From positions 17,246 through 81,245 of the forward strand of contig JAGVYH010000002.1 in assembly GCA_018303325.1 (NCBI GenBank): a stretch of DNA of 64,000 nt, read 5' to 3'. A model generated the notes under the pieces. The model was not told the origin of the DNA. It was given only the letters and a program-made list of their open reading frames with translations, and ran no database searches. Each line of letters begins with the position of its first letter. Position 1 is the stretch's first letter. The stretch is from Candidatus Woesearchaeota archaeon (GTDB taxonomy: Archaea; Nanobdellota; Nanobdellia; Woesearchaeales; DSVV01). Position numbers and translations under genes: made by a program. Positions 12,007 through 62,036 of this stretch are shown piece after piece.

Positions 12007-13446
12007 TTGAGACTGAATAAACACAAAATGAAGATAATTTTTATTAATCCACCATTTACTAATTATGTTGGCGGCATAAAAGGGTATGGAGGAAAATCTA
12101 TGCCCTTAAACCTAACTTATTTAGCATCGTATTTAATAAGCAAAGGTTATGAAAATACTTCAATTCTAGATGCCGAAGCATTAGAATTAAGTTATGAACA
12201 AGTATTAGAACATATAAAGAAAGAAGACCCAGACATTATTGGTTTCACATCACCTACCCCTTCTTTTCAGCAGGTTGTTGATTTATCTAACTTGATAAAA
12301 CAACAAAACCCTCACGTGAAAATAATCATCGGTGGACCACATTCATCTGCTCTGCCACTAGACACAGCAAAAGAACCATCTTTAGATTTTGTTTGTTTTG
12401 GAGAAGGAGAATTAACAATGTTAGAGCTTGTTGAATTCATAGAAAAAGGCAGAACAGATTATGATAAAATTGATGGATTAATATATAAAGAAGGGGAAAA
12501 AATTATTCAAAACAAGCAAAGAAAATTAACAGAGAATTTAGATATTTTTCCTTTCCCTGTAAGAAATTTAGTGCCTAGACATCTTTATTATCCACCGCCA
12601 ACAAAAAGTGTAAGTGACAAAAAAGGAACTTCTATGGTAACTTCCAGAGGTTGTCCATTCAATTGTACATATTGTGTTGCAAAAGTAGTATGGACAAGAA
12701 GAGTGAGATATAGAAGTGTTAAAAATGTCGTCGATGAAATGGAAGAATGTGTTAACAAGTATAACCTTGGGGAATTTAATATTCATGACGAGCTGTTTAC
12801 AGCAAATGAAAAGAGAGTTATAGAATTATGCAAAGAGATAATTAATAGAAAACTTGATGTTGGATGGGTATGTATGGCAAGAGTAGATACAATTCATTCA
12901 AAAGAAATGCTGGAATATATGAAAAAAGCTGGATGCGGTAAAATTGTTTTTGGTTTTGAGTCTGGCTCACAAAAAATTTTAGATCTCATGAAAAAAGGTA
13001 CAACTGTTGAACAAGCAATACGTGCTGTAAAACTTGTTAAAGAATCTGGAATCAAAACATCTGGAAATTTCATGTTAGGGAACATTGGTGAAACGCTAGA
13101 AACAATGAGAGAAACAATTGATATGGCTAAAAAACTAAATACAGATACTATTGCTTTTTTTCAGACAAGCCCGTATCCTGGCACAGAGATTTATTATACT
13201 GCACTTGAAAAAGGGTATTTAAGAAAAGATATACAATGGAAGGATTTTGCACTATTATCTAAGACTGCCCCAGCTTTAAATCTTCCAAACTTACCGCCAG
13301 AAGAAGTAGCAAAATGGGTAAAAAAAGGATATAAAGAATTTTATTTAAGGCCCAGTTATATATTAAATCAGATAGCATGTATAAAAAATTGGCGTGATGC
13401 CAAAAGAATGTGGCAGGGAATAAAACTTCTTGTTCAGGTTAGTTAA
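12007..13446 (+). CDS. B12-binding domain radical SAM protein
   Basis: B12-binding N-domain. TSRGCPFNCTYC radical SAM cluster. Confidence 0.85.
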   Translation: MRLNKHKMKIIFINPPFTNYVGGIKGYGGKSMPLNLTYLASYLISKGYENTSILDAEALELSYEQVLEHIKKEDPDIIGFTSPTPSFQQVVDLSNLIKQQNPHVKIIIGGPHSSALPLDTAKEPSLDFVCFGEGELTMLELVEFIEKGRTDYDKIDGLIYKEGEKIIQNKQRKLTENLDIFPFPVRNLVPRHLYYPPPTKSVSDKKGTSMVTSRGCPFNCTYCVAKVVWTRRVRYRSVKNVVDEMEECVNKYNLGEFNIHDELFTANEKRVIELCKEIINRKLDVGWVCMARVDTIHSKEMLEYMKKAGCGKIVFGFESGSQKILDLMKKGTTVEQAIRAVKLVKESGIKTSGNFMLGNIGETLETMRETIDMAKKLNTDTIAFFQTSPYPGTEIYYTALEKGYLRKDIQWKDFALLSKTAPALNLPNLPPEEVAKWVKKGYKEFYLRPSYILNQIACIKNWRDAKRMWQGIKLLVQVS

Positions 13447-30368: not shown

Positions 30369-31853
30369 CTAAGAACTGGTTATTATTTTTGGATTATTTT
30401 TAATTATTTGAACTGCTTTTTTCATTGTTTTTTTAAGACCGTGTTTTTTTGTAGCATAATAAACCATTTTGAATTTTGTTTTGATATCTTCCATCATTCT
30501 TCTCGGATGCAACAATCTATATTTATTTATATCATTTCTTATATCATTTTCAAGCCGCCTTAATTTTTTGATAAATTCCTCATTATTAAAATCAGTACAA
30601 TTAAGGTATAAATCATTAACACCTTCTAACCCCATTAAATAATTTAATTCATCGCTTATTAATCCTTGCTCTTTTGCCCATTCATAAAGCTTTGTTCCTG
30701 GTAAAGGAGTAGTTACAGCAAATCCTGACGTTGGTTCAACATGAAGGCTTTTACAAAATTCTCTTGTTTCTTTTATTGAGTTTTCATCCTCACCAGGGTA
30801 TCCAAACATCATTTGCACTATTGGCTTCATTCCTGCATTTAATGTCTCTTGTATAGCATATTTATTTAATTCAACTGTGCTCTTTTTGTTCATATTATCT
30901 AATATTCTTTGGCTTCCTGATTCAATCCCATATCCTACATAAACACAACCCGCCTCTTTCATTTTCTTTAACAAAGAAGGAGTTATACAATTAACTCTGC
31001 CTTGGCACATCCAAGATATATTTAATGGTTTAATTTTGCCACATAACTCTAACATTCGGCTTTCACTAATCATTACCAATTCTTCTGCAAATTGTATCTG
31101 TGTGACATTGTACTTTTTTCTTAGTATACTAATTTCTTCGATTATCTTGTCTATTGATCTTAATCTTACACCATTAAAAGTTTTTGAGCAGAAATAACAA
31201 TTCCATGGACAGCCTCTTGCAGTTATTACATTCATACTGTTTGGATATTCTGGCTCAAAGAAAAAAGGGGTCTTTAAATATGATTCGATTGAAAATAAAT
31301 TCCATGCAGGCAATTCAATTGAATCTATGTCCTTGAGTTGAGTTTCATTAGTGGTTCGGATATATATCCCATTCTTCATAAAAGTAATGCCCTTTACGGT
31401 TTTTAGTTGTTCAAAATAGTTATCAGCATTACTCTTTTCTATTGTTTTAAGAATATTAGGCAGGATGATTTCTCCCTCCCCCATAACACAAATATCTACT
31501 TTTGTATTTTTTAACACAATTTCGCTGCTATGCATGGCCAATGCACCACCCAGAATAATCAAAGGGGAATTTGCTTTTGATTTAATATGCGTACTAATCC
31601 ACTTTACATATTTAAATTCTGGAGACATAGCAGAAATTCCAACACAATCAAAATTCTTTTTTTGTATAATTGATAAAACTTCTTCGTCAGTATACATCAT
31701 AACATCTATATCCAGTATATCTACTTGATAACCATCTTTAATAAGATGGGATGCGATATATGCTAATCCCAAAGGCAACCAAGCTGCATATCTTCGTTTA
31801 CCATTATATATCTGCGGTAGATGTATTAATAATATTTTTTTCATTTGAAACAC
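30369..31853 (-). CDS. B12-binding domain radical SAM protein
   Basis: B12-binding N-domain and ARGCPWNCYFC cluster. Confidence 0.85.
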   Translation of the reverse strand: MFQMKKILLIHLPQIYNGKRRYAAWLPLGLAYIASHLIKDGYQVDILDIDVMMYTDEEVLSIIQKKNFDCVGISAMSPEFKYVKWISTHIKSKANSPLIILGGALAMHSSEIVLKNTKVDICVMGEGEIILPNILKTIEKSNADNYFEQLKTVKGITFMKNGIYIRTTNETQLKDIDSIELPAWNLFSIESYLKTPFFFEPEYPNSMNVITARGCPWNCYFCSKTFNGVRLRSIDKIIEEISILRKKYNVTQIQFAEELVMISESRMLELCGKIKPLNISWMCQGRVNCITPSLLKKMKEAGCVYVGYGIESGSQRILDNMNKKSTVELNKYAIQETLNAGMKPIVQMMFGYPGEDENSIKETREFCKSLHVEPTSGFAVTTPLPGTKLYEWAKEQGLISDELNYLMGLEGVNDLYLNCTDFNNEEFIKKLRRLENDIRNDINKYRLLHPRRMMEDIKTKFKMVYYATKKHGLKKTMKKAVQIIKNNPKIITSS

Positions 31854-39132: not shown

Positions 39133-39519
39133 ATGATAGTACTGCCAATGGAACAATCTGAAAAAGCTAAAAACAAAACATATATTGGATTATATGAAAA
39201 AGTAACATTAATGGGCAACAATACGCCAAACAAAGAAGTTATCGCTAAAATAGACACAGGTGCAACAAGGAGTTCTATTGATGTCAAACTTGCAGCAGGC
39301 TTGAAATTAGGGCCTGTATTGACATCAAGAATGATTAAGAGCGCGCAAGGCTCGACATTAAGACCGATTGTTGAAGGCGAAATTATTATCGCTGGAAAAC
39401 AATTAAAGGTTCATTTCACGATTGCCAACAGATCAAAAATGAAATATTCCATGCTGATTGGACAGGATGTTTTAAAAGAAGGTGAGTTTTTGATTGATCC
39501 GAGTAAGATATTAAATTAG
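39133..39519 (+). CDS. retropepsin-like aspartic peptidase (RimK-associated, DUF785-type)
   Basis: IDTGATRSSID catalytic DTG(A) motif. Adjacent to the RimK homologue. Confidence 0.7.
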   Translation: MIVLPMEQSEKAKNKTYIGLYEKVTLMGNNTPNKEVIAKIDTGATRSSIDVKLAAGLKLGPVLTSRMIKSAQGSTLRPIVEGEIIIAGKQLKVHFTIANRSKMKYSMLIGQDVLKEGEFLIDPSKILN

Positions 39520-42943: not shown

Positions 42944-44563
42944 TTGAGTTTAAAGTATATGGCACTTTCAGTAAAAAATAAACTGCTGGCAATGATTATG
43001 TTTTTAGTAGCTATGGCAGTATTTCTTTTTGGGGTTTATCTTCTTTATTTTTTTAATATAACACAATTTAATGCCACCGGCAATATTGTATTGGAAACTT
43101 CGCAAGAAAATACAAATGATAATAATAATAACCTAAAAAATATCAACAGTATCAACAACAATATAGGATTAGAAAATCTAATTATTGTAGGATTAGGAAT
43201 TATTGTGAGTTTGGCATTGGTTGGGTTAGCACTGATACAAATAATGATAAGACCATTGGATAAAGTGATTATTGGAACGCAGCTTGTTGCAAAAGGCGAG
43301 TTTCCTCAAATAGAAAAAACCAGCAACGACGAATTTGGAAGATTGGTTACTTCATTCAATCAAATGGTTGATAAGCTAAAAGAAGGAGAAAAAGAAGAAA
43401 AAAAAGCAAAAGGCATTGCAACAAAAGAAAAGACCAAGTCAGAACTGATTATAGAATCTATGGCTGAAGGGGTAATTGTCACAAACAAAGAACACAAGAT
43501 AAGCGTGTTCAACAAAGCAGCAGAGAATATATTTAACATTGAACAGAAAAAGGCATTAGGCCGGCACATACTGCAGCTAAACAAGTATGGAATTAATAAT
43601 ATTTATCTTGATCCGAAAAAGATTTGTGAAATTGATGAAAGTGTTGATGGGAAAATAAGCAAAGTATACAAAAATATTGAGTTTAAGATAAAACATCTTG
43701 ACAAAATCGTTGGCGCTACAATTTCTCCATTAACAGACGAGAAAGATAAGTTTTGCGGGTCTGTATGTGTGTTAAGAGATATAACAAACACAAAAAGAAC
43801 GGACAATATGAAGTCAGAGTTTATCAGCACAGTAAGCCATGAATTAAGAACCCCATTGACAAGCATAAAAGGCTACGCATCACTGCTTAATCTTGAGAAG
43901 CTTGGCAATATTAATTATCAGCAGTCAAATGCAATCAAAGTAATAAACCAAGAATCTGACAGGTTAATGGCAATAATAGACCAGCTGTTGGACATATCTA
44001 AATTAGAGGAAGGTTATAAGCTTAATATTCAAAAAACAAAGATTGGCGAATGCATAGATAATTCTCCTGCGCTTGAAACTGCAAAGAAAAAGAATATTTC
44101 TGTACAGAAAAACCTGCAAAATCTGCCTGAAATAGAAATCGACAAAAACAGGATAACAGATGTGTTTACCAATTTAATATGCAATGCGGTGAAATACAGT
44201 AAAGAAGGCAGCAGTATAAGGATTACAGCAAAAAAAAGAAATAAGAACATTCAATTCGATGTGATTGATAAGGGAATAGGAATAAAAAAAGATGATTTAA
44301 ATAAAGTATTTGAAAAATTTTATCAGGCAGAAGATCCTATGATAAGGCAGCAGGGCGGCTCTGGATTAGGGTTATCTATCGTCAAAAAAATCATAGAACT
44401 GCATAACGGCACAATAAATATACAAAGTGAATTTGGTTATGGGACAACTATTAGTTTTACGCTGCCATTGAAGTTCAATAATAATAAGATTAATGATGAT
44501 AATAAAAATAGTAAGTATAATAATTATAATTATATTAATAATCAAAGGGATAATAAGCTTTAA
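42944..44563 (+). CDS. sensor histidine kinase (TM-HAMP-PAS-HisKA-HATPase)
   Basis: H-box SHELRTPLTSIKGY and G-box GGSGLGLSIV. Asn-rich low-complexity tail. Confidence 0.9.
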   Translation: MSLKYMALSVKNKLLAMIMFLVAMAVFLFGVYLLYFFNITQFNATGNIVLETSQENTNDNNNNLKNINSINNNIGLENLIIVGLGIIVSLALVGLALIQIMIRPLDKVIIGTQLVAKGEFPQIEKTSNDEFGRLVTSFNQMVDKLKEGEKEEKKAKGIATKEKTKSELIIESMAEGVIVTNKEHKISVFNKAAENIFNIEQKKALGRHILQLNKYGINNIYLDPKKICEIDESVDGKISKVYKNIEFKIKHLDKIVGATISPLTDEKDKFCGSVCVLRDITNTKRTDNMKSEFISTVSHELRTPLTSIKGYASLLNLEKLGNINYQQSNAIKVINQESDRLMAIIDQLLDISKLEEGYKLNIQKTKIGECIDNSPALETAKKKNISVQKNLQNLPEIEIDKNRITDVFTNLICNAVKYSKEGSSIRITAKKRNKNIQFDVIDKGIGIKKDDLNKVFEKFYQAEDPMIRQQGGSGLGLSIVKKIIELHNGTINIQSEFGYGTTISFTLPLKFNNNKINDDNKNSKYNNYNYINNQRDNKL

Positions 44564-45080: not shown

Positions 45081-48000
45081 ATGGAATATAAATTAAATAC
45101 TTGCTGTTTAATGTCAATTAATGAAATTATAGATATAATGAACCATGAAAAAGGCCATAAACAGCAATTATTAGAATTGGCAAAACACATTAATAGTATT
45201 ATACCCAATGATCATTTATCTTTTTCAACAGTTGATGAAGATAAAAGAATAGGTTCTCTTTACAATGTGCAAAGTGATATACACAGTAATAGCAAAAAAA
45301 AAGAACCTATAACAGAATATAATATTACTTATAAAAAAGAATCAAGAGAAGAGAATAACGAAACATTCAAGCAGGTTAATTCTATATTTTCATCACATGA
45401 AATAATTAATCATATATTGACAGAGAAAAAACCATTCATAATCCCATTTAATGAAAGTATATCAGATACACATATTAACAAAAAAAGAGCAGATAAGCAA
45501 ATAAAAGAATTATTAATCTGCCCTATTTTATACAATGATAAAATTATAGGGACTATTAATTTTACAAGTTATGAAGAAGAGGTATACAACAAAGGACATA
45601 TAGACTTTCTGAAAAGCATAACTGATTTATTAAACAGCTACACAACAAATATTTGGACCATACATAAATTAGAGGAAACTATTGAAAGATACAATGTATT
45701 ATTTGACACGTCTTCAAAAGGGATTATTATATGTGATGAAAAAGGATTAATAAAAACAATAAATGAGAAGTTTACAGAAATCGTCGAGATTTCAAAAGAG
45801 GAGCTGAAAGAAAAACAAGATGTAAAAGATGTATTTGGAGACGCAGTCAATAATGCTATTAACAAAGCAATAGAAAACAAGGATAAAAAAGAGAGCAGAC
45901 AAAAGGTAGTAAGGCTAAAAAAAATATATTTTGAGACAAGAAATGGTGAGAAGAAATTTATTGAGCTGAGCATTATTTTCTTAGCAAAAACAAAGGAGAT
46001 GCTGATTTCTGTATATGATGTTACCGCATTGTACGAAACAGAGAATAAACTAGAAGAACAGAATGCAATCTTCAAAAATTTGTACAGCATAAGCAAAGCT
46101 CTGCAAAATACTGATGACATGGAAGAAATATTTCAAATTACTATTAAGGCATTTAGAAATGAAGGTTATGACAGGGTAAGAATATATACTTATGACGAGG
46201 ATGAAAAGATTCTTATTGGAAAAAAAGCGTCTGATATAGATGATTCAGATATGGCAGATATAAAATTAAGAATTGAAGAAAAACACGAAAAGGTTTATCA
46301 CTGTTTTACTAAAAAGGAACCAATTATAACAAAAAACAAACAAACAACAACATTTTATAAGCTGTTAAAAAAAGAGGATGTTTTAGAGACAGCTAGCATT
46401 CCATTATTAAGCGGGGATAAGGTTCTTGGAATGGTAAGTCTCGACAACAAACAAAGCAAAAAACCGCTGCATATCGATGAATTAAATACACTTATACCTA
46501 TTGCCAATCAAATTGCAATTGCAATTGAAAATGCAATACTTCATCAGGAAGACAGAAAAAAATTAAAGAAGCTTACTGCAATGTATGATGTATCAATGTC
46601 TTTAAGCAAGATATTTGATTTGGAGAAGATTCTAAATCTGGTAATTATAAAGATTGTTAAAATTATAGGATGTGATATGTGCACTATTAACTTTCTTGAT
46701 GCGACCAAAGAATATTTTATTCCCAAATCAATATACAGCCACTCGCATGAATATTTTAAAAAAGGAAGAGTTTCAGTTAACCAAAGTGTTTGTGGCTTAG
46801 CAATAAAAACAAACCAGACAATCTTTATTGAGAATGTAATAAAAGAGCCATTATATGCCAATAAACTATTTGCGAAAAAAGAGCAGTTAAGAAGTATGTT
46901 AAGTATACCATTGATTACACAAGATGAAGCGATAGGAACAATCAATATTTATACAAAGAAGACAAAAAAATATTCAAAGGATGAGATAGACCTGCTTAAA
47001 GGCCTTGCAAACCAGGCTGCATTAAGTATAAGGAACTGCGAATTATACGACAACCTTAACAAAGAAATGGATGTTCTTTCAAATATATTAGAAACAAGCC
47101 AAAGCATAAATGCACAGCTTAACCTGGACAATTTACTTAAAATAACATTTGAAAAAACAATTGAATTAACTAAAGCAGATTCCGGCATTTTATTGCTCTT
47201 AAAGGATGATTTTCTCGAGATTAAATTAACAAAAGGATATGCAAAAGAAAAGGCAAGCATTATTAGAATCAAGAAAGATGAAGGAATATCCGGCTGGGTT
47301 GCAAGAAACGGAAAGCCTTTGATTATTGCAAATGTAAAAGATGACAAGCGATATGTAGAGATAAACAAGAAAACTGTTTCTGAGGCGGCAATACCACTGA
47401 TTAAGGCAGGAAAAGTTATTGGTGTCCTTAATTTTGAAAGCAGTAATTATGATAATTTCAGAAGGTTTGAGAAGCCATTAGAAATATTGACCAACCAAAT
47501 AGCTATTGCAATTGAAAATGCAAAGCTGTATCATGAAATCAGCCTGTTTAATGAAACCCTGAAAAACGAAGTTTACATGGCAACTAAAGAGCTCGTCGAG
47601 AAAAATAAAGAGCTTGAAAGAATGGCACAGCTCAAGTCTGATTTTGTCAGCAATGTAAGCCATGAATTAAGGACGCCATTGACAAGCATAAAAGGATACA
47701 GCAAATTACTGCTGGAAGGAAGGTTAGGTGAAGTTCCAGAGAAACAGGTTCAATGTTTAAAGATTATTCTTGAAGAAACTGACAGGCTGACAAGACTGAT
47801 TAATGAGATATTGGATCTTGCTAAGCTGGAGAAAGGAAAGGTTAAATTCAAAAAAGAAAAGATAAATATTGAAGAGGTTGCTCAAAAAGTGATTGAAACA
47901 TTAACTACATTGGCTGACGACAAGGATATTAAGATACATTTCACCCCAACAGGGAAGATATTTAATATTGCTGCCAGCCAAGATCTGATAAAACAGGTGT

Positions 48001-48329
48001 TTTTCAACCTTATCGGCAATGCAATCAAATTTACACCAAAGAAAGGCAGCATTTATGTGAATATTGAAAATATAGAAAATGAAATAAAAGTAACAATAAA
48101 AGACACAGGCATAGGAATAAAAAAAGAAATTGTACCAAAGATATTTGATAAGTTCTTTCAAGTTGACAGCTCAATGACAAGAGAGCATGGAGGCACAGGT
48201 TTAGGGCTGCCCATCTCGAAACATATCATTGATGCGCATAAAGGGAAGATTTTTGTCGAGAGCGAGGTAGGAAAAGGAAGCAGTTTTATATTTACACTGC
48301 CGATACAGAAAAAGATAGAAGAAGATTGA
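45081..48329 (+). CDS. large multi-sensor (GAF/PAS-rich) histidine kinase, 1082 aa
   Basis: Repeated GAF-like blocks. H-box SHELRTPLTSIKGY and HATPase GGTGLGLPISK at the C-terminus. Confidence 0.9.
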   Translation: MEYKLNTCCLMSINEIIDIMNHEKGHKQQLLELAKHINSIIPNDHLSFSTVDEDKRIGSLYNVQSDIHSNSKKKEPITEYNITYKKESREENNETFKQVNSIFSSHEIINHILTEKKPFIIPFNESISDTHINKKRADKQIKELLICPILYNDKIIGTINFTSYEEEVYNKGHIDFLKSITDLLNSYTTNIWTIHKLEETIERYNVLFDTSSKGIIICDEKGLIKTINEKFTEIVEISKEELKEKQDVKDVFGDAVNNAINKAIENKDKKESRQKVVRLKKIYFETRNGEKKFIELSIIFLAKTKEMLISVYDVTALYETENKLEEQNAIFKNLYSISKALQNTDDMEEIFQITIKAFRNEGYDRVRIYTYDEDEKILIGKKASDIDDSDMADIKLRIEEKHEKVYHCFTKKEPIITKNKQTTTFYKLLKKEDVLETASIPLLSGDKVLGMVSLDNKQSKKPLHIDELNTLIPIANQIAIAIENAILHQEDRKKLKKLTAMYDVSMSLSKIFDLEKILNLVIIKIVKIIGCDMCTINFLDATKEYFIPKSIYSHSHEYFKKGRVSVNQSVCGLAIKTNQTIFIENVIKEPLYANKLFAKKEQLRSMLSIPLITQDEAIGTINIYTKKTKKYSKDEIDLLKGLANQAALSIRNCELYDNLNKEMDVLSNILETSQSINAQLNLDNLLKITFEKTIELTKADSGILLLLKDDFLEIKLTKGYAKEKASIIRIKKDEGISGWVARNGKPLIIANVKDDKRYVEINKKTVSEAAIPLIKAGKVIGVLNFESSNYDNFRRFEKPLEILTNQIAIAIENAKLYHEISLFNETLKNEVYMATKELVEKNKELERMAQLKSDFVSNVSHELRTPLTSIKGYSKLLLEGRLGEVPEKQVQCLKIILEETDRLTRLINEILDLAKLEKGKVKFKKEKINIEEVAQKVIETLTTLADDKDIKIHFTPTGKIFNIAASQDLIKQVFFNLIGNAIKFTPKKGSIYVNIENIENEIKVTIKDTGIGIKKEIVPKIFDKFFQVDSSMTREHGGTGLGLPISKHIIDAHKGKIFVESEVGKGSSFIFTLPIQKKIEED

Positions 48330-48335
48330 GTAAGT

Positions 48336-50273
48336 TTATAGCTGTTCAACCAATCCTTTAAATTTATCCAAACCAATAGTCAGAATAAACTTAGCCAGTA
48401 ATGGACCTCTCTCTTTGCCAATTAATAGTTTATAAGCGCCTTTAAAAAATTCTTTTGGTTCTAGTTCCAAACTTTTACAAATATTATAAAATTCATCATG
48501 CAGTTCTTTGTCTGTCCATGATTTTTGGTGCAGTTTTTTGACGACAATATCTAACGCTTTTTTGATTCTATGATCAAGCTTTAACTCTTCAGGATTGATG
48601 GTTTCATTGAGTTTAAACTTGTATTCATCGCTTGCAAAATTATTTATCCATTGTCTGGCATCATGCATTCTCTGAAGAACAGAGTGTAATTCTGCGCCTG
48701 ACAAGTTGTTTGGTAAATGGCCAAGCATTCTTAATGTATCTAAAGCACGTTCATCATTGTCCATTACAGTCTGATTAACTATGGCAGCAAACTTCAAAGG
48801 AATTTGTACAGGCATCTGTTTAGGAAGCTCGCCAACATGGCTAAGCTCATAAATTCTAGTCTGCATCTTCTTTTCTTTTTCATCTGCCTCTTCTGCGCCA
48901 AAATAAATTCTTTCTGTCTTGTCAAATCTGTCGTAAAGAAATATGATGTTATTGTCCTGTGACGGGTCAAAGTCTATAACAGAATTAGGCCTTGATTTTA
49001 TTAATAGATATCTTACCATATGCGCTGGCAGGATATTAGTTATGTCTACAAACGCAATACCCTGGCCTTTAGAAGTTGACATCTTCTTTCCGCCAATATT
49101 AAAAAATTCATAGCCATTGCCTGTGAACTGCCTTGTTGAAGGATATGGTGGTGTGTAATCAAACAATTTATTTGCTAGTTCAACACCAAAAGTTCTTGAA
49201 CCGCCTTTAGTGAAATGATCTTTGCCGGCATACTCGCAAATTACTCCTTTAGAGAACCATTTTGCAGGCCATTCTACCTTCCATGGAAACTTGCCGTTGC
49301 CGTTGTAAGGAGAAATTTTGCCGTGATGACCGCATCCTTTTGCCCATTTGACAACATCATCCCTGCATTCATAAGTTAATAATTCTGTTTCAGTATCCCA
49401 TTCTGTTGCCATGGTTGTAGCAATCCTTCCGCATTTTTCGCAGATAACATTGAAAGGTATTTTTTTAGCAGCGGCAACATCATCACCATACAATTGCCTG
49501 TAAACATCCTGAACTTTAGGATAATTGTCGAGTACAAGCTTTATTGCTTTATTAAAAGTTCCATTTTCATAATCCATGCCTGTGCTTGTTATTTCTGCTT
49601 TTATACCCAATTCTTCAAACTTTTCTACACACTGCATAAAATAATAATCTCCAAAACTTTCATATCCTTTAACTGGAGAAGGAATGTTTCTAAACGGCAT
49701 GCCTAAATACTTGTCCCATGAATTATCTAATTCCTGATTAGGCTTGTCATAAGGATCTATATCATCGCTGCTGAGAACAAATTTGGCATTTAAACCAATA
49801 CTACGCATTGCTTTGGCAATTGCATCATGAATAATCCAGCCTCTGCCAGAGCCTACATGGATTGAACCAGAAGGTGTTTTCTCGTCGTAAACAAGATAAT
49901 AACCTACTTTGTCTACTACCGCCTTTAACTTTTTATCTTTTTCTACACGCTCTTTTATATCCAATGCTATCTGGTCAGCCCAATGATTGTGTTCTTCAGA
50001 ATCCTCATTATGTTTATGCTGCATTTTAGCCTTTTCTTTATGTTCTTTAGTTAGCTCTTTATGTTCTTTATCTGATTTTTGTGTGATATTTTGTTTAATA
50101 TCTTGGTTGGTATCTAGTTTAATATCTTGTTTAAGGTCTTGTTTAAGGTCTTGTTTAGGGTCTTGCTTAATGTTTTGTTTAATGCCTTGTTGAAGGTTTT
50201 GTTTAGTGTTTTGTTTAATATTTGGGTTAGAATTTTGTTTAATGTTTTGTTTAACAGATGAGTTAGTGTTCAT
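48336..50273 (-). CDS. lysK: lysyl-tRNA synthetase, class I (archaeal type), with N-terminal tetrapeptide-repeat extension
   Basis: HWAD...TPSGSIHVGSGRG class I HIGH region and KMSTSKG (KMSKS) motif. About 95 aa of [IL]KQ[ND] repeats precede the core. Confidence 0.9.
   Translation of the reverse strand: MNTNSSVKQNIKQNSNPNIKQNTKQNLQQGIKQNIKQDPKQDLKQDLKQDIKLDTNQDIKQNITQKSDKEHKELTKEHKEKAKMQHKHNEDSEEHNHWADQIALDIKERVEKDKKLKAVVDKVGYYLVYDEKTPSGSIHVGSGRGWIIHDAIAKAMRSIGLNAKFVLSSDDIDPYDKPNQELDNSWDKYLGMPFRNIPSPVKGYESFGDYYFMQCVEKFEELGIKAEITSTGMDYENGTFNKAIKLVLDNYPKVQDVYRQLYGDDVAAAKKIPFNVICEKCGRIATTMATEWDTETELLTYECRDDVVKWAKGCGHHGKISPYNGNGKFPWKVEWPAKWFSKGVICEYAGKDHFTKGGSRTFGVELANKLFDYTPPYPSTRQFTGNGYEFFNIGGKKMSTSKGQGIAFVDITNILPAHMVRYLLIKSRPNSVIDFDPSQDNNIIFLYDRFDKTERIYFGAEEADEKEKKMQTRIYELSHVGELPKQMPVQIPLKFAAIVNQTVMDNDERALDTLRMLGHLPNNLSGAELHSVLQRMHDARQWINNFASDEYKFKLNETINPEELKLDHRIKKALDIVVKKLHQKSWTDKELHDEFYNICKSLELEPKEFFKGAYKLLIGKERGPLLAKFILTIGLDKFKGLVEQL
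50089..50256. repeat. 12-bp tandem repeat, about 14 copies, consensus (C/T)TTGTTTAA(G/T)(G/A)T, inside the 5' end of the lysK ORF
   Basis: Consecutive 12-mers CTTGTTTAAGGT, CTTGTTTAAGGT, CTTGTTTAGGGT, CTTGCTTAATGT, TTTGTTTAATGC and so on. The period of 12 keeps the reading frame. Coordinates are within about 2 bp. Confidence 0.75.
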
Positions 50274-50352
50274 ACAGAATAAGTACTAAGTTGTGTTATA
50301 TAAATATTTTGATTAATTGATTTATTGTATGTAAAAAATCTACTTCAGTTTA

Positions 50353-51924
50353 CTATACCTCTGGTTCATAATGAATTTTTAACTCTTCTGCGCGCGAAGG
50401 AAGTCTTAATTTTCTTAATGCTTTTGCCTCTATTTGTCTTATTCTTTCTCTTGTTAAACCAAAATCATTCCCAACCTCATCTAAAGTATAATTTCTTTGT
50501 TCATCTATGCCAAACCTTTTTTTTAAGACTGTTTCTTCTCTAGCTGTCAATGTTGCCAAACCTTTTCTTACTGCCATGTTTTGATCAGTTTTTTCTGCTC
50601 CTGATAATGGGCTTGGTGTTGTGTTATCAGGTATAAAATCCTCTAATGTTGAATGCCCATCTTCATCTTTCCCAATAATTATGCTTAAACTGATTGGCTC
50701 TAATCTTTCTATTCTTAATATTTTATTTACTCGTTCCAATGGAAGTTCAGATGCTTCAGCAATTTCTTCTGGTGTTGGTTTAGGAATTCCTTTTGCTATT
50801 AAATGCTGTTTTATGCGGAGAATTTTATTATATTGCTCAGTCATATGAACAGGAATTCTTATAGTCTTGCCCTCATCGGCAATGCCCCTTATAATCGCTT
50901 GTCTTATCCACCATGTTGCATATGTGCTGAATTTATTGCCTGTTCTGTAATCAAAATGCTCAGCAGATTTAATTAATCCTTCATTACCTAAACCAACAAG
51001 ATCAGATAGTTCTAAGCCTCGGTTTCTATATTTTTTTGCAATTGAGATTACTAATCTTAAATTTGCATTGACAAATGCATTTTTTAAACCCGTGATTTGA
51101 TTACTATAATATCTCACATCAGATATCACCCTTGCCAAATAAGTTTTACCTTTTTCAGTTGTTAATACTTTAGGAGAGATTGTTTCTTTAAGAAGAGTCG
51201 GAAATCTATGCTTTGAGCCATTATCACTAATTTCCAGAGTTAGAATGTCTTTACTAACTCTTCCAATTACATTATCAAAATAAGCAGGTGTAAGGTGTAT
51301 GCTTGCCAAATAAGACAAAACCCTGTCCTGATATTTCAATTTAGTTTTGTTGTTCCATTTAATACTCGATTGCTCTTTTAACTCTTCTTTTAACTCTTCT
51401 TCAAATTCAAATAAATCCATAACTGTTTTATAAAAAAATGAGACATAATCTTCTTTCTGTAATGTATAACTATTCTCATTTAATTTATCACTTTCTGTTG
51501 GATTATCGTCTTGTAATGATTTATATTGTCTTGATTGTTTTGATTGTTTTGGTTGTCTTCTTGTTTTTTTTTCTGGCAGTTGGCCATTTCTTTGCACAAT
51601 ATACTCTAAAAAAGCAGGCTCTTCATTATAATTAGGGGTTGAGATAAAATCATTATGCCTGAAACTAGGAATGGTTAAAGACATCATTAAATTAACCAAC
51701 TCGTCCATAAAATAACCATGAAGATTAAAATAACATAGCAGGGATAATTGGTTCCAAGCTTTTTCCTGCACCTGACCTAATTCTTGTTCTCCTTCCCTTG
51801 TTAAAAGAACTGAGCCTGTTCCAACTTCTTTAAGATACAATCTTAGCGGGTCGTACCTTTCCTTAGCTTCTGTTTCCTGTTCTTTTTTGCGGTAATGATC
51901 GACCATAAAAACAGGTAACAGCAT
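50353..51924 (-). CDS. rpoD: RNA polymerase sigma-70 factor (primary sigma, RpoD/SigA)
   Basis: Region 1.2 (DPLRLYLKEVG). Region 2 (YATWWIRQAI). Region 4 (LTRERIRQIEAKALRKLR). Likely start at MVDH. Confidence 0.9.
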   Translation of the reverse strand: MLLPVFMVDHYRKKEQETEAKERYDPLRLYLKEVGTGSVLLTREGEQELGQVQEKAWNQLSLLCYFNLHGYFMDELVNLMMSLTIPSFRHNDFISTPNYNEEPAFLEYIVQRNGQLPEKKTRRQPKQSKQSRQYKSLQDDNPTESDKLNENSYTLQKEDYVSFFYKTVMDLFEFEEELKEELKEQSSIKWNNKTKLKYQDRVLSYLASIHLTPAYFDNVIGRVSKDILTLEISDNGSKHRFPTLLKETISPKVLTTEKGKTYLARVISDVRYYSNQITGLKNAFVNANLRLVISIAKKYRNRGLELSDLVGLGNEGLIKSAEHFDYRTGNKFSTYATWWIRQAIIRGIADEGKTIRIPVHMTEQYNKILRIKQHLIAKGIPKPTPEEIAEASELPLERVNKILRIERLEPISLSIIIGKDEDGHSTLEDFIPDNTTPSPLSGAEKTDQNMAVRKGLATLTAREETVLKKRFGIDEQRNYTLDEVGNDFGLTRERIRQIEAKALRKLRLPSRAEELKIHYEPEV

Positions 51925-52008: not shown

Positions 52009-53373
52009 TTATGATGCTTGTTTTACCACATAAACCATATCATTTTTTCTTACTTTCTCTGTTACTTTTATGGTTATTTTATTACCTTGAATCGCAGAGT
52101 TAATTGGTTTATTTGTGACAGCATTGAGAATTTTGTCAACTTTACATCTGCAATAGCCTGTAGTTGGACCTGTAATAACAATAATACTGCCTTTTTTTAA
52201 TATTTCATTGCCCTCAATTAAAATTTCAGCAACTTTCTGCTTTGCAAAATAATTAGTAACCTTGCCAAGAACCCTTTTCTGTTCTGTTGCTTTGTTGCCA
52301 TAGACATTTGACCATTCGTTTAATGGAACACCCATGTAAAAACCTGTGCTAAAACCTTTATTATAGACTTTTCTGACTTCTTCAATTAATTCTTTCTTTA
52401 GTTTATTATATTTTCCAGAATTTTCTTTTTTACTCTTCTTTTTATTTTTCTTAATGCCCATAACAGTATCAATTGCTCGCCTGTAAGCCTTGGTTACTGT
52501 ATAAACATAGTCAGCATTTCTTCCTCTGCCTTCTATTTTGAAGACGTCAATATTTGCATCGATTAATTGTTCTATAATTTCTAACGTGCATAAATCTTTT
52601 GGGCTCAGTATGTAGCCTTTGCCTAATTTCAGCTCGTGGCCTTCTTCTGCATCCTTGATTATGTATTCTTGCGAGCAATCATCATCGTTTGTATTCTCTG
52701 TTGTATTCTCGTTTGAATTTTGAGTTGTATTCGCTTTTATGTTTGCCATGATATATTCTCGTCTGCAAGGCTGCAAACATTGTCCTCTGTTGGCGCTGCA
52801 GTTATGAATAAACTGGCTCAAGAAACATCTTCCGCTAATGCTTATACACATTGCGCCATGGCAAAATGCTTCTATTTCTATTAACTTTCCTGAAGGGCTT
52901 TTTAGGTTATGTTTTTTTATTTGTTGGATTATATTTTTTATTTGATCAAGAGAAAGTTCTCTAGCAAGAACAATTCTGTCAGCATAAGCTGAAAAAAGCA
53001 TTAACGCTTCAAAATTACTGCAGCTCTGCTGTGTTGTTAAATGGACTGAAATTTCTCTTTTTCTTGCTTTAAGGATAACTGCCCAATCACTTGCAATAAC
53101 TGCATCGATTTTATGAGTTTTAACCTCGTCGAGAATATTGTCAATAAGGGTAAGCTCATTATCATAAACTATTGAATTCATTGTGAGGTAACATTTAATC
53201 TTATTTTTTGCGCAGAGGTCCTTAATTTTTGGTAAATCAGAAAGCTCAAAATTTTTAGCTCTCCCTACCCTTAGATTAAACTGTTTAATGCCGAAATATA
53301 CACTGTCACATCCTGCTTTTATTGCTGCCTGTAATGTTTCAAAGCTTCCGCAAGGGCTCATTAGTTCTACCAT
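52009..53373 (-). CDS. peptidase U32 family protein with acidic/Asn-rich insertion
   Basis: N-terminal LMSPCGSFETLQAAIKAGCDSVYFG and E/C motifs of U32. Confidence 0.8.
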   Translation of the reverse strand: MVELMSPCGSFETLQAAIKAGCDSVYFGIKQFNLRVGRAKNFELSDLPKIKDLCAKNKIKCYLTMNSIVYDNELTLIDNILDEVKTHKIDAVIASDWAVILKARKREISVHLTTQQSCSNFEALMLFSAYADRIVLARELSLDQIKNIIQQIKKHNLKSPSGKLIEIEAFCHGAMCISISGRCFLSQFIHNCSANRGQCLQPCRREYIMANIKANTTQNSNENTTENTNDDDCSQEYIIKDAEEGHELKLGKGYILSPKDLCTLEIIEQLIDANIDVFKIEGRGRNADYVYTVTKAYRRAIDTVMGIKKNKKKSKKENSGKYNKLKKELIEEVRKVYNKGFSTGFYMGVPLNEWSNVYGNKATEQKRVLGKVTNYFAKQKVAEILIEGNEILKKGSIIVITGPTTGYCRCKVDKILNAVTNKPINSAIQGNKITIKVTEKVRKNDMVYVVKQAS

Positions 53374-53621: not shown

Positions 53622-54170
53622 TCAATGATTATAATTCAAAAGATTCTCGTTCCTTCCTTTAACATAATGTATACTTTTGCTGTATTTGAACACTCTTCTT
53701 TCAATCTTTGTGTTTAATTGAAAATAAGCTCCAACCCTTTTTCTTAACATTTCAGGCTCAAACGGTTTAGTAATATATTCGTCTGCTTCTACGTCAACTG
53801 CTTTTCTTACATCCTCGTTTTGATGTTTTGCAGTAAGCATGATGATTGGTATCATTTTTGTTTCCTTGTTCGTCTTTAACAGCCTGCAAACTTGGTATCC
53901 ATCCATGTTTGGCATCATAATGTCAAGTATGATTAAATCAGGAGCTGAGTTTATTTTATTCAAAGCATTCTGTATTTTATTTAAAGCATCCTGTCCAGAT
54001 TCTGCCTTGATTACATCATACTCCTGCTCAAGTGTTAAAGCTATTAATTCTCTGATTGCATATTCATCATCAACAACCATGACCTTTTTTTTCTGATTCT
54101 TTGTGTCCATAATTGTAGGAAAGTAAATTGAATATATATAACTTGTTAAGCTGATACTATTAAGTACCAA
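53622..54170 (-). CDS. response regulator receiver protein (single domain, N-terminal extension)
   Basis: VMVVDDE and LIILDIMMP motifs. Probable true start at MDTKN. Confidence 0.8.
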   Translation of the reverse strand: MVLNSISLTSYIYSIYFPTIMDTKNQKKKVMVVDDEYAIRELIALTLEQEYDVIKAESGQDALNKIQNALNKINSAPDLIILDIMMPNMDGYQVCRLLKTNKETKMIPIIMLTAKHQNEDVRKAVDVEADEYITKPFEPEMLRKRVGAYFQLNTKIERRVFKYSKSIHYVKGRNENLLNYNH

Positions 54171-56623: not shown

Positions 56624-59248
56624 ATGTTCATGAGAGCTATGGAAAAGGATAAAAACAGCGACGAGAAAATCATTCCTGAAAAAACTGAAAAAACAAGCGA
56701 AGACTCAAATAAAGAAGCAGATAATAATGATAAGAATCTTGAAATTAATGATATTTCTGCGCCAGAAATAGAGAATGTTGAGAAAGGAATTACACCAATA
56801 GTAATAGAAGATGAGATGAAGACCTCTTATATAGATTATGCTATGAGTGTTATTGTAGGAAGGGCATTGCCTGATGTTAGAGACGGCTTAAAACCTGTCC
56901 ACAGAAGGATTTTGTTTGCGATGAATGAGATGGGGATGGCGCATAATAAACCTTATAAAAAATCAGCAAGAATAGTGGGGGACTGCCTCGGGAAATATCA
57001 TCCGCATGGTGATCTGGCTGTTTATGATTCAATGGTAAGAATGGCGCAAAACTTCTCATTAAGATATACATTAATTGACGGCCACGGCAACTGGGGCAGC
57101 ATTGATGGAGACTCTGCAGCGGCAATGAGATATACAGAATGTCGTCTGCAAAAAATCGCAGAAGACATATTAGAAGATATTGACAAAGAAACAGTAAATT
57201 TTGTTGATAATTTCGACGGAACATTAAAGGAACCAGTAGTATTACCTTCAAAGGTTCCTAACTTATTAATCAATGGCTCATCTGGAATCGCTGTAGGTAT
57301 GGCAACAAATATTCCGCCACATAATATTCAAGAGGTATGCAGCGCAGCCATTAATGTTATAGACAATCCAGAAATGCCAATAAAAGAATTAATGAATATA
57401 GTTAAAGGCCCTGATTTTCCAACCGGCGGCATTATATGCGGAAAACTTGGTATAAGCTATGCATACGGCACAGGAAGAGGAAAAATTCTTGTAAAAGGAA
57501 AAACACACATTGAAAAGCATAAAGAAAGAGAAGCAATCATTATAGATGAAATACCTTATATGGTCAACAAATCCACGTTAGTTGAAGAGATTGCTGACAA
57601 TGTCAAATCAAAAATGATAGAGGGAATCAGCGATATAAGGGATGAGAGTGACAAAAGCGGAATGCGTGTTGTTATCGAACTGAAGAAAGATTCCAATACT
57701 GATGTTGTATTGAATCAATTATATAAACATTCAAAATTACAGAATACATTTGGAATTATTATGCTTGCATTGGTTGATAACGAGCCAAGAATTCTTAATC
57801 TTAAAGAGATGCTTGAAGAATTTATAAAACACAGAAAAATCGTTGTCATAAGAAGAACACAGTTTGAACTGAAAAAAGCAGAGGAAAGGGCGCATATTCT
57901 TGAAGGCTTAAAAATTGCATTAAGCGATATAGACAATGCAATAAGAATCATAAAGGCAGCAAAAGATGTTAATATCGCCAGAACTGGTTTAGTCACAACT
58001 TACACATTAACAGAAATACAGGCACAGGCTATTCTCGACATGAAATTACAAAAATTAACTTCTCTGGAAACTGAAAAAATTCTTGAAGAATTAATAAATC
58101 TGATTGAAAAGATAAAGGATTTCAAGGAGATACTTGCTTCTGAAATAAGGATTAAGGATATCATAAAAAGTGAATTAGTTGAGATTAGCGAAAGGTATAA
58201 AGACGAGAGAAAAACAGAGATAAGCGAGAGCGAAGAAGAAGAGGAAATTGAAATTGAAGATCTTATCGAAGAAGAAGATGTTGTTGTTACAATCTCTCAT
58301 GGAGGTTATATCAAGAGAACACCTTTAAACGTCTACAAATCTCAGGGCAGAGGCGGCAGAGGTATAATCGCTGCAACAACAAAAGAAGAAGATTTTGTGG
58401 AGCATTTATTTATTGCCAATACTCATGATTATTTGCTGTTCTTTACTGACAAAGGCCAAGTGCACTGGCTGAAGGTATTCAGAATCCCTGAAGGCGCCAG
58501 ACAGGCAAAGGGCAAAGCAATTGTTAATTTGATTAATATTGAAGCAGGAAGTGAGAAAGGCAGCAATATAACTGCGTTTATACCAATAAAACAATTTGAA
58601 GCAACACAATATTTGGTGATGGTAACAAATAATGGAATTATTAAAAAAACCAGCTTAGCAGAATTTTCAAACCCAAGGCATGGCGGAATAAAAGCAATAA
58701 ACATTGAAGAAGGCGATGAGCTGGTCAATGTATTATTAACCGACGGCACTAAACAGATAATAATTGCTACAAAAGACGGTCTTGCTGTCAAATTCAACGA
58801 AGAAGATGTTAGAGAGATGGGAAGATCATCGATAGGTGTAATTGGGATAAGATTGAAAAGAAAAGTAAATGAAAAAGGGGAAATAACTGATAGTGATAAA
58901 GTTATCGGCGCAGTAATCGGCGATGATAACAAAACATTACTGACAATAACTGAAAATGGTTATGGAAAAAGAACTAGTATCGGTGAATACAGACTGATTA
59001 ACAGAGGCGGGCAAGGTGTTATCAACATAATCTGCAGCGAAAGAAACGGAAATGTTGTCGGAATAAAAAGTGTTTCAGAAGAAGATGAAATCATGCTGAT
59101 AAGCCAGAAAGGTATAATTATCAGAACAAGATGCAATTTAATATCAGTCATTGGAAGAAATACACAAGGAGTAAGATTAATGAAACTTGAAGAAGGCGAT
59201 AAAGTAGTAAGTGCTGCGAAGATAATTGGCGATGAAGGAAGCGAATAG
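56624..59248 (+). CDS. gyrA: DNA gyrase subunit A
   Basis: [28 protein letters not shown] and AAMRYTE active-site Tyr region. C-terminal beta-pinwheel repeats. Confidence 0.95.
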
Positions 59249-60491: not shown

Positions 60492-62036
60492 ATGAACAAT
60501 CTTACTGAAAGATTTAAAAAAATTCTTAATAAAAAATGGTACATTCAGGGGTTTAATGGCTGCCTGAATTTCTGTTTTGCTGCTCCGCAGTCTGGATTAG
60601 TTGGATGTCATAATAATCTTGGATATGGTTACACAGAAAAAGTATTTATTTTTAACAAAGATTATGTTGAATATCTTTATCTTGAAGATGATTTTAGAAA
60701 TATTGGGAATACGTTTCTTGAGAAATACAAGAAAAACAAGAATTATCTCAAAGAAGTGATGAAAAAGGATGCAGTAATTGTTGCTTCATCAAAAAAAACA
60801 ATGAGCAAGATAGACAACACAGAATTAACAAAATTAAACAAACAAGAGCTGGTTAAATTATATCAGGAAATGCAAACTGCCTATCATGGAATTCTGGATG
60901 TAAGCCATATTATTGAAGGCATTTCTTTTGTCGTCGAACCGCTCCTGAAAAAAAAGATTGAAGATGCATTAAAACTTGAAAGGCATGATCCTGAATTTAG
61001 AAATATATTCAATCTGCTTATGCAACCTGCAAAGCCATCCTTTGCGAATGAAGAGTACATTGATATACTTGAAATTGTAAAATTAGTGAAAAAAGACAAA
61101 GAATTGTTTTCTTTATTCAATAAGTTAACACTTCAAGAAACAGCTGAAAGATTAAACAAAAACATAAAAGAAAAAATTATTGCACACAGAAAAAGATTTT
61201 TGTACAACCAGCTAAATTATTATCACGGGAATCCTTTAAGTGAATTAGATTATATTTCTGAAATAAAAAAACTGCTTGAAGAAAATATCGATATTGACGA
61301 TAAGCTTAAGGCAGAAAAAGAGAGATACACTTTAAATGCTAAGATGAGAGGGGGGATTATACACAAATATAAGTTTAATGATGAGATTACTTCATTAATT
61401 AATATATCGATGATGGTTCTTCACTGGCAGGATAATAGAAAAAAGAATATTTTGACTGGTGTTTATTACATGAATCTTTTGCTTGGCGAGATTGGCAGGA
61501 GATATAACATTCCATTAGAAAAGATAAAAAGATATCTTCCAGAGGAGATAACTGAAGATAAGCTTGATAATTTTAGTATGGATGATGCTAATGAAAGGAT
61601 GAAGCGTTATATTATTTACAGCAAAAGAGAAAATGGAAAGCTGATATTTGAAATTTATACAAAAGAGGATTATGAAAAGATTATGGATATTTACAATAAA
61701 ACATATATAGAACAAAATGATATTCACGGCGCATCAGCATCACCAGGCAAGATAATTGGTGTTGCAAGGATATGCAAAACAAAAGAAGATCTTTTGAAAT
61801 TTAAGGTTGGTGAAATACTAGTTGCATCAATGACAAGGCCGGAATTTGTGCCTGCAATGAAAAAAGCATCAGCCATAGTAACTGATGAAGGCGGGTTAAC
61901 GTGCCATGCATCTATTGTTTCCAGAGAATTAGGCAAGCCATGCATTGTAGGAACAAAGATTGCCACAAAAGTGTTAAAAGACGGCGATATGGTAGAAGTG
62001 AATGCAAACCACGGCACTGTAAAGAAGATAAAATAA
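60492..62036 (+). CDS. PEP-utilising-enzyme mobile (swivel phospho-His) domain protein with uncharacterised 400-aa N-terminal region
   Basis: C-terminal GGLTCHASIVSRELGKPCIVG matches the swivel-domain catalytic His motif. Confidence 0.6.
   Translation: MNNLTERFKKILNKKWYIQGFNGCLNFCFAAPQSGLVGCHNNLGYGYTEKVFIFNKDYVEYLYLEDDFRNIGNTFLEKYKKNKNYLKEVMKKDAVIVASSKKTMSKIDNTELTKLNKQELVKLYQEMQTAYHGILDVSHIIEGISFVVEPLLKKKIEDALKLERHDPEFRNIFNLLMQPAKPSFANEEYIDILEIVKLVKKDKELFSLFNKLTLQETAERLNKNIKEKIIAHRKRFLYNQLNYYHGNPLSELDYISEIKKLLEENIDIDDKLKAEKERYTLNAKMRGGIIHKYKFNDEITSLINISMMVLHWQDNRKKNILTGVYYMNLLLGEIGRRYNIPLEKIKRYLPEEITEDKLDNFSMDDANERMKRYIIYSKRENGKLIFEIYTKEDYEKIMDIYNKTYIEQNDIHGASASPGKIIGVARICKTKEDLLKFKVGEILVASMTRPEFVPAMKKASAIVTDEGGLTCHASIVSRELGKPCIVGTKIATKVLKDGDMVEVNANHGTVKKIK

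Follow-up and report, generated by a model that had tools for sequence, protein, structure and literature searches.

The locus considered here is the class I lysyl-tRNA synthetase (LysRS) gene of a Candidatus Woesearchaeota archaeon, a tiny inhabitant of groundwater. The gene lies on the minus strand at 48336-50273 of a 64,000-nucleotide stretch of contig JAGVYH010000002.1 (hereafter the window) and encodes a 645-aa product. The question is raised by the 96 residues ahead of the conserved part of the enzyme, most of which are encoded by a 12-bp tandem repeat. Either these residues are translated as a Lys/Gln-rich appended tail, or translation begins at an internal methionine and the repeat is a tract of the 5' untranslated region (5' UTR). 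The evidence points to translation of the whole tail and to growth of the array within it, and what such a tail may do for the enzyme is then weighed.

The N-terminal tail and its probable translation

The gene product is the housekeeping class I LysRS of a Woesearchaeota (DPANN) archaeon, and the class I LysRS assignment, proposed earlier from the sequence, was borne out by profile and structural comparisons. The catalytic core and anticodon-binding domain (residues 97-645, which with the stop codon occupy 48336..49985 on the minus strand) were matched by PF01921 over residues 97-480 (E=5e-90, profile search) and by TIGR00467 (lysS_arch) over residues 97-640 (373.7 bits against a cut-off of 147.55), while the class I LysRS of Pyrococcus horikoshii (PDB 1irx_A) was aligned to residues 97-633 (E=8.4e-70). 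The translation includes the class I signatures SIHVGSGRG (HIGH-like) and KMSTSK (KMSKS-like). The identical protein in NCBI, MBS3121417.1, is named as a Woesearchaeota LysRS and the nearest genomes were all metagenome-assembled and from Woesearchaeota or further DPANN lineages. Since archaea normally have a LysRS of class I, this type of enzyme is expected and unremarkable in the host, whose DNA in the window has a GC content of 30.8% and is about 87% coding. Residue 3 of 1irx_A (HWAD) pairs with residue 97 of the window LysRS, so that HWADQ begins at residue 97 and not, as first described, at residue 95. As the profiles and 1irx_A align only from this residue, the first 96 residues lie outside everything that is conserved in the family.

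The tail comprises these 96 residues, N-terminal to H97 of the HWADQ core. It opens with a non-repeat cap, MNTNSS (residues 1-6, 50256..50273, minus strand as for the following tail features), which is identical in one of the nearest relatives (L001). The cap is followed by the tandem array, fifteen in-frame units encoding x-K-Q-N/D tetrapeptides (residues 7-66, 50076..50255), which was delimited by Tandem Repeats Finder (TRF), a unit table and phase-locked matches. Units 1-8 read VKQN, IKQN, SNPN, IKQN, TKQN, LQQG, IKQN and IKQD, and units 9-15 read PKQD, LKQD, LKQD, IKLD, TNQD, IKQN and ITQK; seven of the fifteen fit the strict pattern [IL]KQ[ND] and ten fit xKQ[ND]. The unit length of 12 nt is a multiple of three and all fifteen units stand head to tail in the single open LysRS frame, with ATT AAA CAA AAC (IKQN) as the consensus. 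TRF reported a period of 12 with 14.1 copies and 76% matches over 50086-50254, with periods of 24 and 36 also scored, and no other large tandem array was present within the window. The array announced in the earlier note therefore stands, with fifteen units in register in place of about fourteen. Exact copies of ATTAAACAAAAC were found twice in the window, both within the array, and eight matches to it with at most two mismatches fall in exact 12-nt phase inside 168 nt, compared with about one per kb elsewhere. Units 9-11 form a perfectly periodic stretch of 32 nt, AAACAAGACCTT repeated 2.7 times.

The segment after the array reads SDKEHKELTKEHKEKAK and includes a 21-nt duplication, seen by TRF and in the sequence itself, within SDKEHKELTKEHKEKA (residues 67-82, 50028..50075), for which a helix was predicted with low confidence. 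The 14-mer CTTTATGTTCTTTA, reported earlier as duplicated, is indeed present at both 50036 and 50057 of the plus strand, 21 nt apart, and encodes KEHKE(L/K) each time. An internal ATG (Met84; 50022..50024, with its A at 50024) opens the acidic and His-rich junction MQHKHNEDSEEHN (residues 84-96, 49986..50024), which alignments showed to be moderately conserved in the clade and which directly before the core reads QHKHNEDSEEHN.

The promoter elements of the gene are placed with respect to the first ATG. An archaeal TATA box, TTTATATA, with an 8/8 match to TTTAWATA is located at 50297..50304 (minus strand), that is at -31 to -24 from the A of this ATG, and the A-rich CAAAATA immediately upstream of it (50305-50311, minus strand) resembles a B recognition element (BRE). 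Both elements match the description of archaeal promoters (PMC7289017). By the TATA spacing, the LysRS start codon (ATG, 50271..50273, minus strand) would also be the transcription start, with a T/A pyrimidine-purine step at -1/+1. In archaea the centre of the TATA box lies about 26-27 nt ahead of the transcription start. The TATA/BRE geometry thus puts the 5' end of the transcript at the first ATG, which would make the mRNA leaderless and the array coding. No Shine-Dalgarno (SD)-like 4-mer was found at -16 to -4 before the first ATG.

Two classes of start signal were recognised among the window genes, one with a TATA-like box whose end lies about 22-25 nt ahead of the ATG and the other with a GGAGG-type site 6-12 nt ahead of it. 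It is typical of archaea that leaderless and SD-led genes occur side by side in this way. TATA matches of at least 7/8 to TTTAWATA at -33 to -28 were found for 7 of 49 first ATGs compared with 8 of 359 internal in-frame ATGs (Fisher p=7e-4), and SD-like 4-5-mers preceded 9 of 49 first ATGs compared with 18 of 359 internal ones (p=2e-3). The SD-marked starts formed a set separate from the TATA-marked ones with little overlap, and clear GGAGG-type sites were present at nine other genes in the window.

The same arrangement was found in related LysRS loci, where a TATA box matching at 7-8/8 positions sits 28-34 nt before exactly one in-frame ATG. In L001-L006, L009, L011, L017, L081 and L088 this is the far-upstream ATG, giving tails of 22-56 aa, and a TATA box was never found at the internal ATGs of these loci. 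An unbiased count of TATA-spaced ATGs in any frame up to 330 nt upstream of HWADQ, which took in 70 lineages, gave 45, of which 40 share the reading frame of LysRS (binomial p=1.4e-14). The window and L001 do not differ in the 38 nt that run from the BRE to the ATG, whereas identity at third codon positions of the core is only 77.5%. This block is nearly the same in L081 and L088, sister lineages in which core third codon positions are 72-78% identical to those of the window and sequences further upstream are unrelated. No in-frame ATG, GTG or TTG occurs between the first ATG and HWADQ in L081 or L088, and the tail must therefore be translated there.

On this comparative and sequence evidence, the LysRS mRNA is very probably leaderless from 50273, its 5' end falling on the first ATG or no more than a few bases from it, with the whole 96-residue tail translated. 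Of the two alternatives offered by the earlier note, the translated Lys/Gln-rich tail is thus the one supported, by the TATA box at the first ATG, by the conserved start block and by the lack of an internal start in L081 and L088; the close relatives, all of which have polar, Lys-rich tails, also support it. The finding fixes the LysRS start codon, and the TATA-to-ATG spacing is usable for start calling in Woesearchaeota genomes. The LysRS loci of Nanohaloarchaeota (L045-L053, L057, L061 and L079) carry a GGTGA/GGTGG SD sequence before the start with a TATA-like box further upstream, a lineage difference in the initiation of the same gene.

The other alternative was that translation starts at Met84 (50024) and that the array lies in a 5' UTR of about 250 nt as a slippage-prone regulatory tract. 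The Met84 codon, an in-frame ATG that precedes the core by 13 codons, is also present in L001, but it is ATA in L081 and TTA in L088, neither of which has an alternative start. No TATA box (best match 5/8) or SD 4-mer accompanies it, and the ribosome-binding site that might be looked for there amounts to a weak AAGG 7-10 nt upstream, which is not conserved, the corresponding sequence in L001 being AAAGC. The TATA-to-ATG geometry likewise indicates the first ATG and not Met84. The 12-nt unit is a multiple of three and all length differences between lineages are in frame; slippage of a unit four codons long cannot switch the reading frame. The first 284 nt of the RNA, with a folding energy of -14.1 kcal/mol (z=0.15), were no better structured than shuffled sequences, and no Rfam family was matched at gathering thresholds. 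A permissive Rfam search returned a match to sR52 alone (16.8 bits, E=0.41), which was treated as chance. With neither a start signal, nor a conserved ATG, nor RNA structure beyond chance, the internal start and the regulatory tract that went with it are not supported.

One database protein, P0124 (562 aa), does begin at Met84 and was considered as support for an internal start or for a frameshifted strain. It derives from L089 (ENA ERZ28563591 scaffold_68659), in which about 160 nt of unrelated sequence plus NNNNNNNNNN are present at 1580-1760, inside the perfectly periodic part of the array, and split LysRS into a 63-aa stub and a 562-aa protein seemingly starting at Met84. Foreign sequence and a run of N within the array identify P0124 as an assembly artefact, and it was rejected as support; a mis-scaffold at the repeat had been propagated as a separate protein database entry, which is now flagged as wrong. 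A phase-variable contingency locus or 5'-UTR regulatory repeat was likewise rejected, the 12-nt unit being in the translated frame and downstream of the promoter-supported start. Initiation at Met84 is highly improbable, and Met84 is probably just an internal methionine.

Probable growth of the array and possible roles of the tail

The number of units differs markedly between close relatives. Proteins of 645, 605, 601, 586 and 562 aa were included in the 90%-identity cluster of the window LysRS, the last of these being the artefact described above. The tails measured 37 aa in L001, 52 in L088, 56 in L081 and 96 in the window, and the promoter, start block and pre-core junction were conserved among these four while unit number differed. 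L001, with 96% aa identity in the core, has about two units, and its 37-aa tail, MNTNSSVKQNIKQETSNEHKNKAKMPHKHNEDSEEHN, consists of the cap and first two units as in the window and then goes straight to the pre-core segment. L081 and L088, with 95% core aa identity, have about six degenerate units (INQN, IKQS, NKQK, PTQN, PKQS, I..). The window tail, with its 15 units and the KEHKE duplication, was the longest among the 122 homologues examined. Recent local duplication is indicated by the perfectly periodic 32-nt stretch and by the way in which Asn-type and Asp-type units group together. From these sequence comparisons, the array appears with good probability to have grown by replication slippage or unequal recombination of the 12-nt unit, to 15 units compared with about 2 and about 6 in the nearest relatives.

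Six independent assemblies of the window population were 100% identical in DNA over the promoter and whole gene, although consensus assemblies hide minor variants. The identical LysRS protein is encoded by at least 24 contigs, which come from several samples. Metagenomes were scanned twice for further strains, with the conserved promoter and start block in one case and the junction of tail and core in the other, and neither scan returned a match, so that the copy-number comparison covers the loci given above. Copy number thus differs between relatives at the species level (about 90% nucleotide identity) and not detectably between samples. The variable copy number predicted earlier was therefore found among the close relatives, with about 2, about 6 and 15 units, and was not seen within the population as sampled by the six identical assemblies.

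The AlphaFold model, built from a 49-sequence alignment, had a predicted local distance difference test score (pLDDT) above 90 in the core and a predicted template modelling score of 0.81, compared with a pLDDT of 31-46 over residues 1-92 and of 31-35 in the repeats. No secondary structure was modelled in residues 1-66 and a low-confidence helix was placed at residues 67-84, and the tail is accordingly predicted to be intrinsically disordered. A coiled coil or single alpha-helix suggested by the 4-residue periodicity was rejected, as AlphaFold gave no helix in the repeats and the charges provide no i/i+4 salt bridges. A Pfam search with the tail alone matched no family. Relative to the window proteome the tail is enriched in Lys (19.8% versus 10.4%), Gln (15.6% versus 2.5%) and Asn (13.5% versus 6.6%), and it has no Phe, Tyr, Trp, Cys or Arg. 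The repeat part has a net charge of +6 and an isoelectric point (pI) of 9.85, and residues 83-96, the last 14 before the core, have a net charge of -2.

Tails of at least 20 aa were present in 14 of the 16 nearest homologues (57-96% identity), compared with a median of 11 over all 122 homologues, most of which have 5-14 residues before HWADQ. Beyond the nearest relatives these tails have no alignable sequence but do have a common layout, in which a polar stretch rich in Lys leads into an acidic patch that abuts the core. Some of them (for example P0016 and P0028) have internal periodicities of their own, the start of P0016 being without TATA support. Other Woesearchaeota LysRSs carry folded domains, namely an N-terminal B3/4 (PF03483) domain with a Lys-rich linker just before HWADQ in P0026 and P0048, and a C-terminal tRNA_bind (PF01588) domain in P0099. 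P0106 and P0109 were also listed, with P0026 and P0048 (L013 and others), among LysRS fusions with N-terminal B3/4, a fold of the PheRS-beta editing type. The tRNA_bind domain of P0099 is Trbp111/EMAP-II-like, and the fused LysRS architectures may merit a study of their own.

On balance we favour a reading in which the array is a slippage-expanded stretch within a clade-wide, fast-evolving, polar, Lys-rich and predicted-disordered appendage that may act in tRNA capture. A TATA/BRE promoter would give a leaderless mRNA from the first ATG, from which the full 96-residue tail would be translated. The 12-nt unit would be multiplied by slippage or unequal recombination, its four codons keeping the frame at every gain or loss, and the feature retained would be a flexible Lys-rich tether followed by an acidic patch beside the core. 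That selection maintains tails of this class, as flexible appendages rich in Lys, is proposed with moderate confidence, and the repeats themselves, in their exact sequence and number, are probably near-neutral filler. Tentatively, and by analogy with the tails of eukaryotic LysRS, AspRS and AsnRS, the likeliest use of the tail would be to add non-specific affinity for tRNA. Such capture is plausible because class I LysRS needs bound tRNA for lysine activation, a passage of PMC2034488 naming it as one of four synthetases that require tRNA for amino-acid activation. It is also plausible because sister lineages append tRNA-related domains to the same enzyme, and because in eukaryotes the class II LysRS captures tRNA with an N-terminal tail that is disordered and basic, such tails binding tRNA non-specifically (PMC6213541).

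Several observations weigh against this account. The start assignment stands on promoter geometry and comparison. The whole tail is only mildly basic (net +4, pI 9.3), with 6 of the 15 units ending in Asp, which cancels the Lys charge, and the tails of relatives range from net -4 to +9 and from pI 4.7 to 10.6, so that the high-pI hallmark is not consistently present. Tail sequence and length are unconstrained between relatives, and no length variation was seen within the population of the window in the six assemblies. Other proteins of the window (31% GC) also have polar low-complexity stretches, one of them at a 24-nt duplication, which fits compositional drift rather than a selected function.

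The tail might therefore be translated and yet have no selected function, being a near-neutral expansion that arose from AT bias and slippage and was tolerated at a solvent-exposed N-terminus. Its free turnover in length and sequence between lineages that are 95-96% identical in the core, the charge-neutral Asp-type units, the disorder predicted by AlphaFold, the lack of a Pfam family and the low-complexity stretches elsewhere in the window, including the one that coincides with the 24-nt duplication, would all be expected of neutral sequence. The persistence of tails of at least 20 aa with a common layout in 14 of the 16 nearest homologues would not, and a compact DPANN genome (87% coding) is expected to purge useless sequence, while the sister lineages attach true tRNA-related domains to their LysRS. 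A neutral tail is a serious though somewhat doubtful possibility.

It is improbable that the tail is instead a protein-protein or localisation handle, directed at another synthetase, an elongation factor, the ribosome or the cell envelope, in place of a tether for tRNA. A flexible polar tail with a short predicted helix (residues 67-84) could act so, and archaeal LysRS is reportedly found in complex with LeuRS and ProRS. Passages of PMC8216282 and PMC4394549 describe eukaryotic synthetase extensions as often mediating complex assembly. The tails of relatives have no conserved motif in common, however, the window tail has no hydrophobic or signal-like segment, and the conserved neighbourhood (a sigma-70-like gene and a GAF histidine kinase) offers no evident partner. 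Pure speculation, and hardly credible, is a sensor in which the speed of the ribosome over the Lys-codon-rich opening reports charged tRNA-Lys and tunes LysRS synthesis or mRNA stability. There are 19 Lys codons in the first 96, nearly double the proportion in the window proteome (19.8% versus 10.4%), the tails of relatives are 9-39% Lys and mostly above that proteome level, and the mRNA, leaderless by the geometry above, is unstructured. Stalling at scarce Lys-tRNA would, however, lower LysRS output, which is the wrong sign unless coupled to another step, and AT bias and RNA binding explain the Lys-richness equally well. As to whether such tails are specific to LysRS, no other synthetase was present among the 23 largest proteins of the window.

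Neighbouring genes and other features of the window

Immediately upstream of LysRS is a bacterial-type sigma-70 family gene with regions 1.2, 2, 3 and 4 (50353-51924, minus strand), an arrangement that recurs within the same population and probably in L088. Sigma-70 genes of unknown control have been reported as prevalent in Woesearchaeota (PMC8204110). A TATA-like TTTAAATC lies only 2 nt before the first ATG of this gene, and its start is therefore probably Met7, which would place the TATA box at about -28. Another product, of 514 aa (60492-62036, plus strand), unusually combines a helix-turn-helix match to Sigma70 region 4 at residues 316-347 with a PEP-utilising-enzyme mobile domain at its C-terminus (residues 438-508).

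On the other side, a 1082-aa bacterial-type sensor histidine kinase with PAS and four GAF domains (45081-48329, plus strand) converges on LysRS with 6 nt between the stop codons, and it also adjoins LysRS in L081. Another bacterial-type sensor histidine kinase, with HAMP and PAS domains, is encoded at 42959-44563 (plus strand).

Two further small in-frame tandem duplications were located in the window. A 24-nt sequence is present twice at 52685-52732, at the Asn/Thr-rich insert NTTQNSNENTTENTNDDD of a U32 peptidase (gene 52009-53373, minus strand), and a 21-nt sequence is duplicated in tandem at 53952-53994 of the gene at 53622-54110 (minus strand). The coincidence in the U32 peptidase suggests that this genome generally tends to build low-complexity sequence by slippage. 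Polar low-complexity stretches were also found at the N-terminus of GyrA, in a histidine kinase and in the U32 peptidase. In DNA gyrase subunit A (56624-59248, plus strand) about 45-80 polar Lys/Glu/Asp/Asn-rich residues precede the conserved domain, which begins at residue 80; a TATA-like box lies about 12 nt before its first ATG and the annotated start may therefore be wrong.

Elsewhere in the window a large surface-sugar cluster (14203-36092 generally) includes a NeuB-cytidylyltransferase fusion, four DegT-family aminotransferases, a UDP-GlcNAc 2-epimerase, glycosyltransferases and a flippase, together with three paralogous B12-binding radical-SAM proteins (6153-7523, 12028-13446 and 30369-31844). 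At 39133-39519 (plus strand) a promoter-like AAAATATTTATAAACCACACA, close to the LysRS promoter in sequence, lies just 8 nt ahead of the first ATG, and this open reading frame probably starts at a codon further downstream.

Comparison with known synthetase extensions

The nearest functional analogue of the window tail is the RNA-interaction domain of eukaryotic LysRS, while the nearest by origin are the low-complexity insertions of the Plasmodium type. Like the N-terminal RNA-interaction domain of eukaryotic class II LysRS and the Lys-rich extensions of AspRS and AsnRS, the window tail is N-terminal to the catalytic body, absent from a tail-less reference enzyme, Lys-rich and disordered, in this case by prediction only; with the LysRS extension it also has in common that both are carried by the synthetase for the same amino acid. 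Unlike the eukaryotic enzyme, however, the host is the unrelated archaeal class I LysRS, and the tail, which a tandem repeat in the DNA has generated, has an acidic patch and is no more than mildly basic (net +4). No sequence similarity to the eukaryotic extensions was established, no direct comparison of the sequences having been made, and a likeness in tRNA binding would be by analogy only. Since the class I and class II host enzymes are non-homologous, the window tail is no member of the eukaryotic family by descent and any likeness would be convergent.

The Asn/Lys-rich low-complexity insertions in housekeeping proteins of AT-rich genomes such as Plasmodium, aminoacyl-tRNA synthetases among them, resemble the tail in other respects. 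Both occur in AT-rich genomes (30.8% GC here), are polar and rich in Asn, Lys and Gln, arise by repeat expansion and are placed where the fold tolerates them; both vary between close relatives, are of doubtful function and are accompanied by several further examples in the same genome. Low-complexity regions in Plasmodium synthetases have been mentioned (PMC10813123, PMC9136112). The window genome differs in being archaeal, very small and compact, and its tail is a clean tetrapeptide array at the extreme N-terminus, unlike the internal homopolymer-like runs of Plasmodium.

Closer to home, the Woesearchaeota LysRSs fused to B3/4 or tRNA_bind are the same enzyme in the same order, with the added module also at a terminus, but these domains are folded and recognisable whereas the window tail is repetitive, belongs to no family and is predicted to be unstructured. 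The LysRS of Pyrococcus horikoshii (1IRX) has a homologous core and anticodon-binding domain but starts two residues before HWAD and has no tail. Appended domains have been stated to be absent from prokaryotic LysRSs (PMC6213541), and no description of appended tails on archaeal class I LysRS was found in the literature searched.

The boldest interpretation is that DPANN class I LysRS independently evolved a eukaryote-like, disordered, Lys-rich tRNA-capturing tail that gains and loses length over short spans of evolution by in-frame 12-nt slippage. We consider this unlikely as a whole. Disordered Lys-rich synthetase tails are regarded as a eukaryotic innovation, and to a specialist the finding of the tail is neat rather than startling. 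If the interpretation were true, it would contradict the textbook absence of appended domains from prokaryotic LysRS, and the tails of 37, 52, 56 and 96 residues on near-identical cores would be a natural length series for studying how tails tune a synthetase. A clade of archaeal class I LysRS with such tails, alongside sister enzymes with folded tRNA-related domains, would represent convergence and would hint at a pressure on reduced, probably symbiotic cells to hold on to tRNA. If the tail is neutral, it would still illustrate cleanly how low-complexity sequence is built by slippage in an essential gene when the genome is AT-rich and streamlined.

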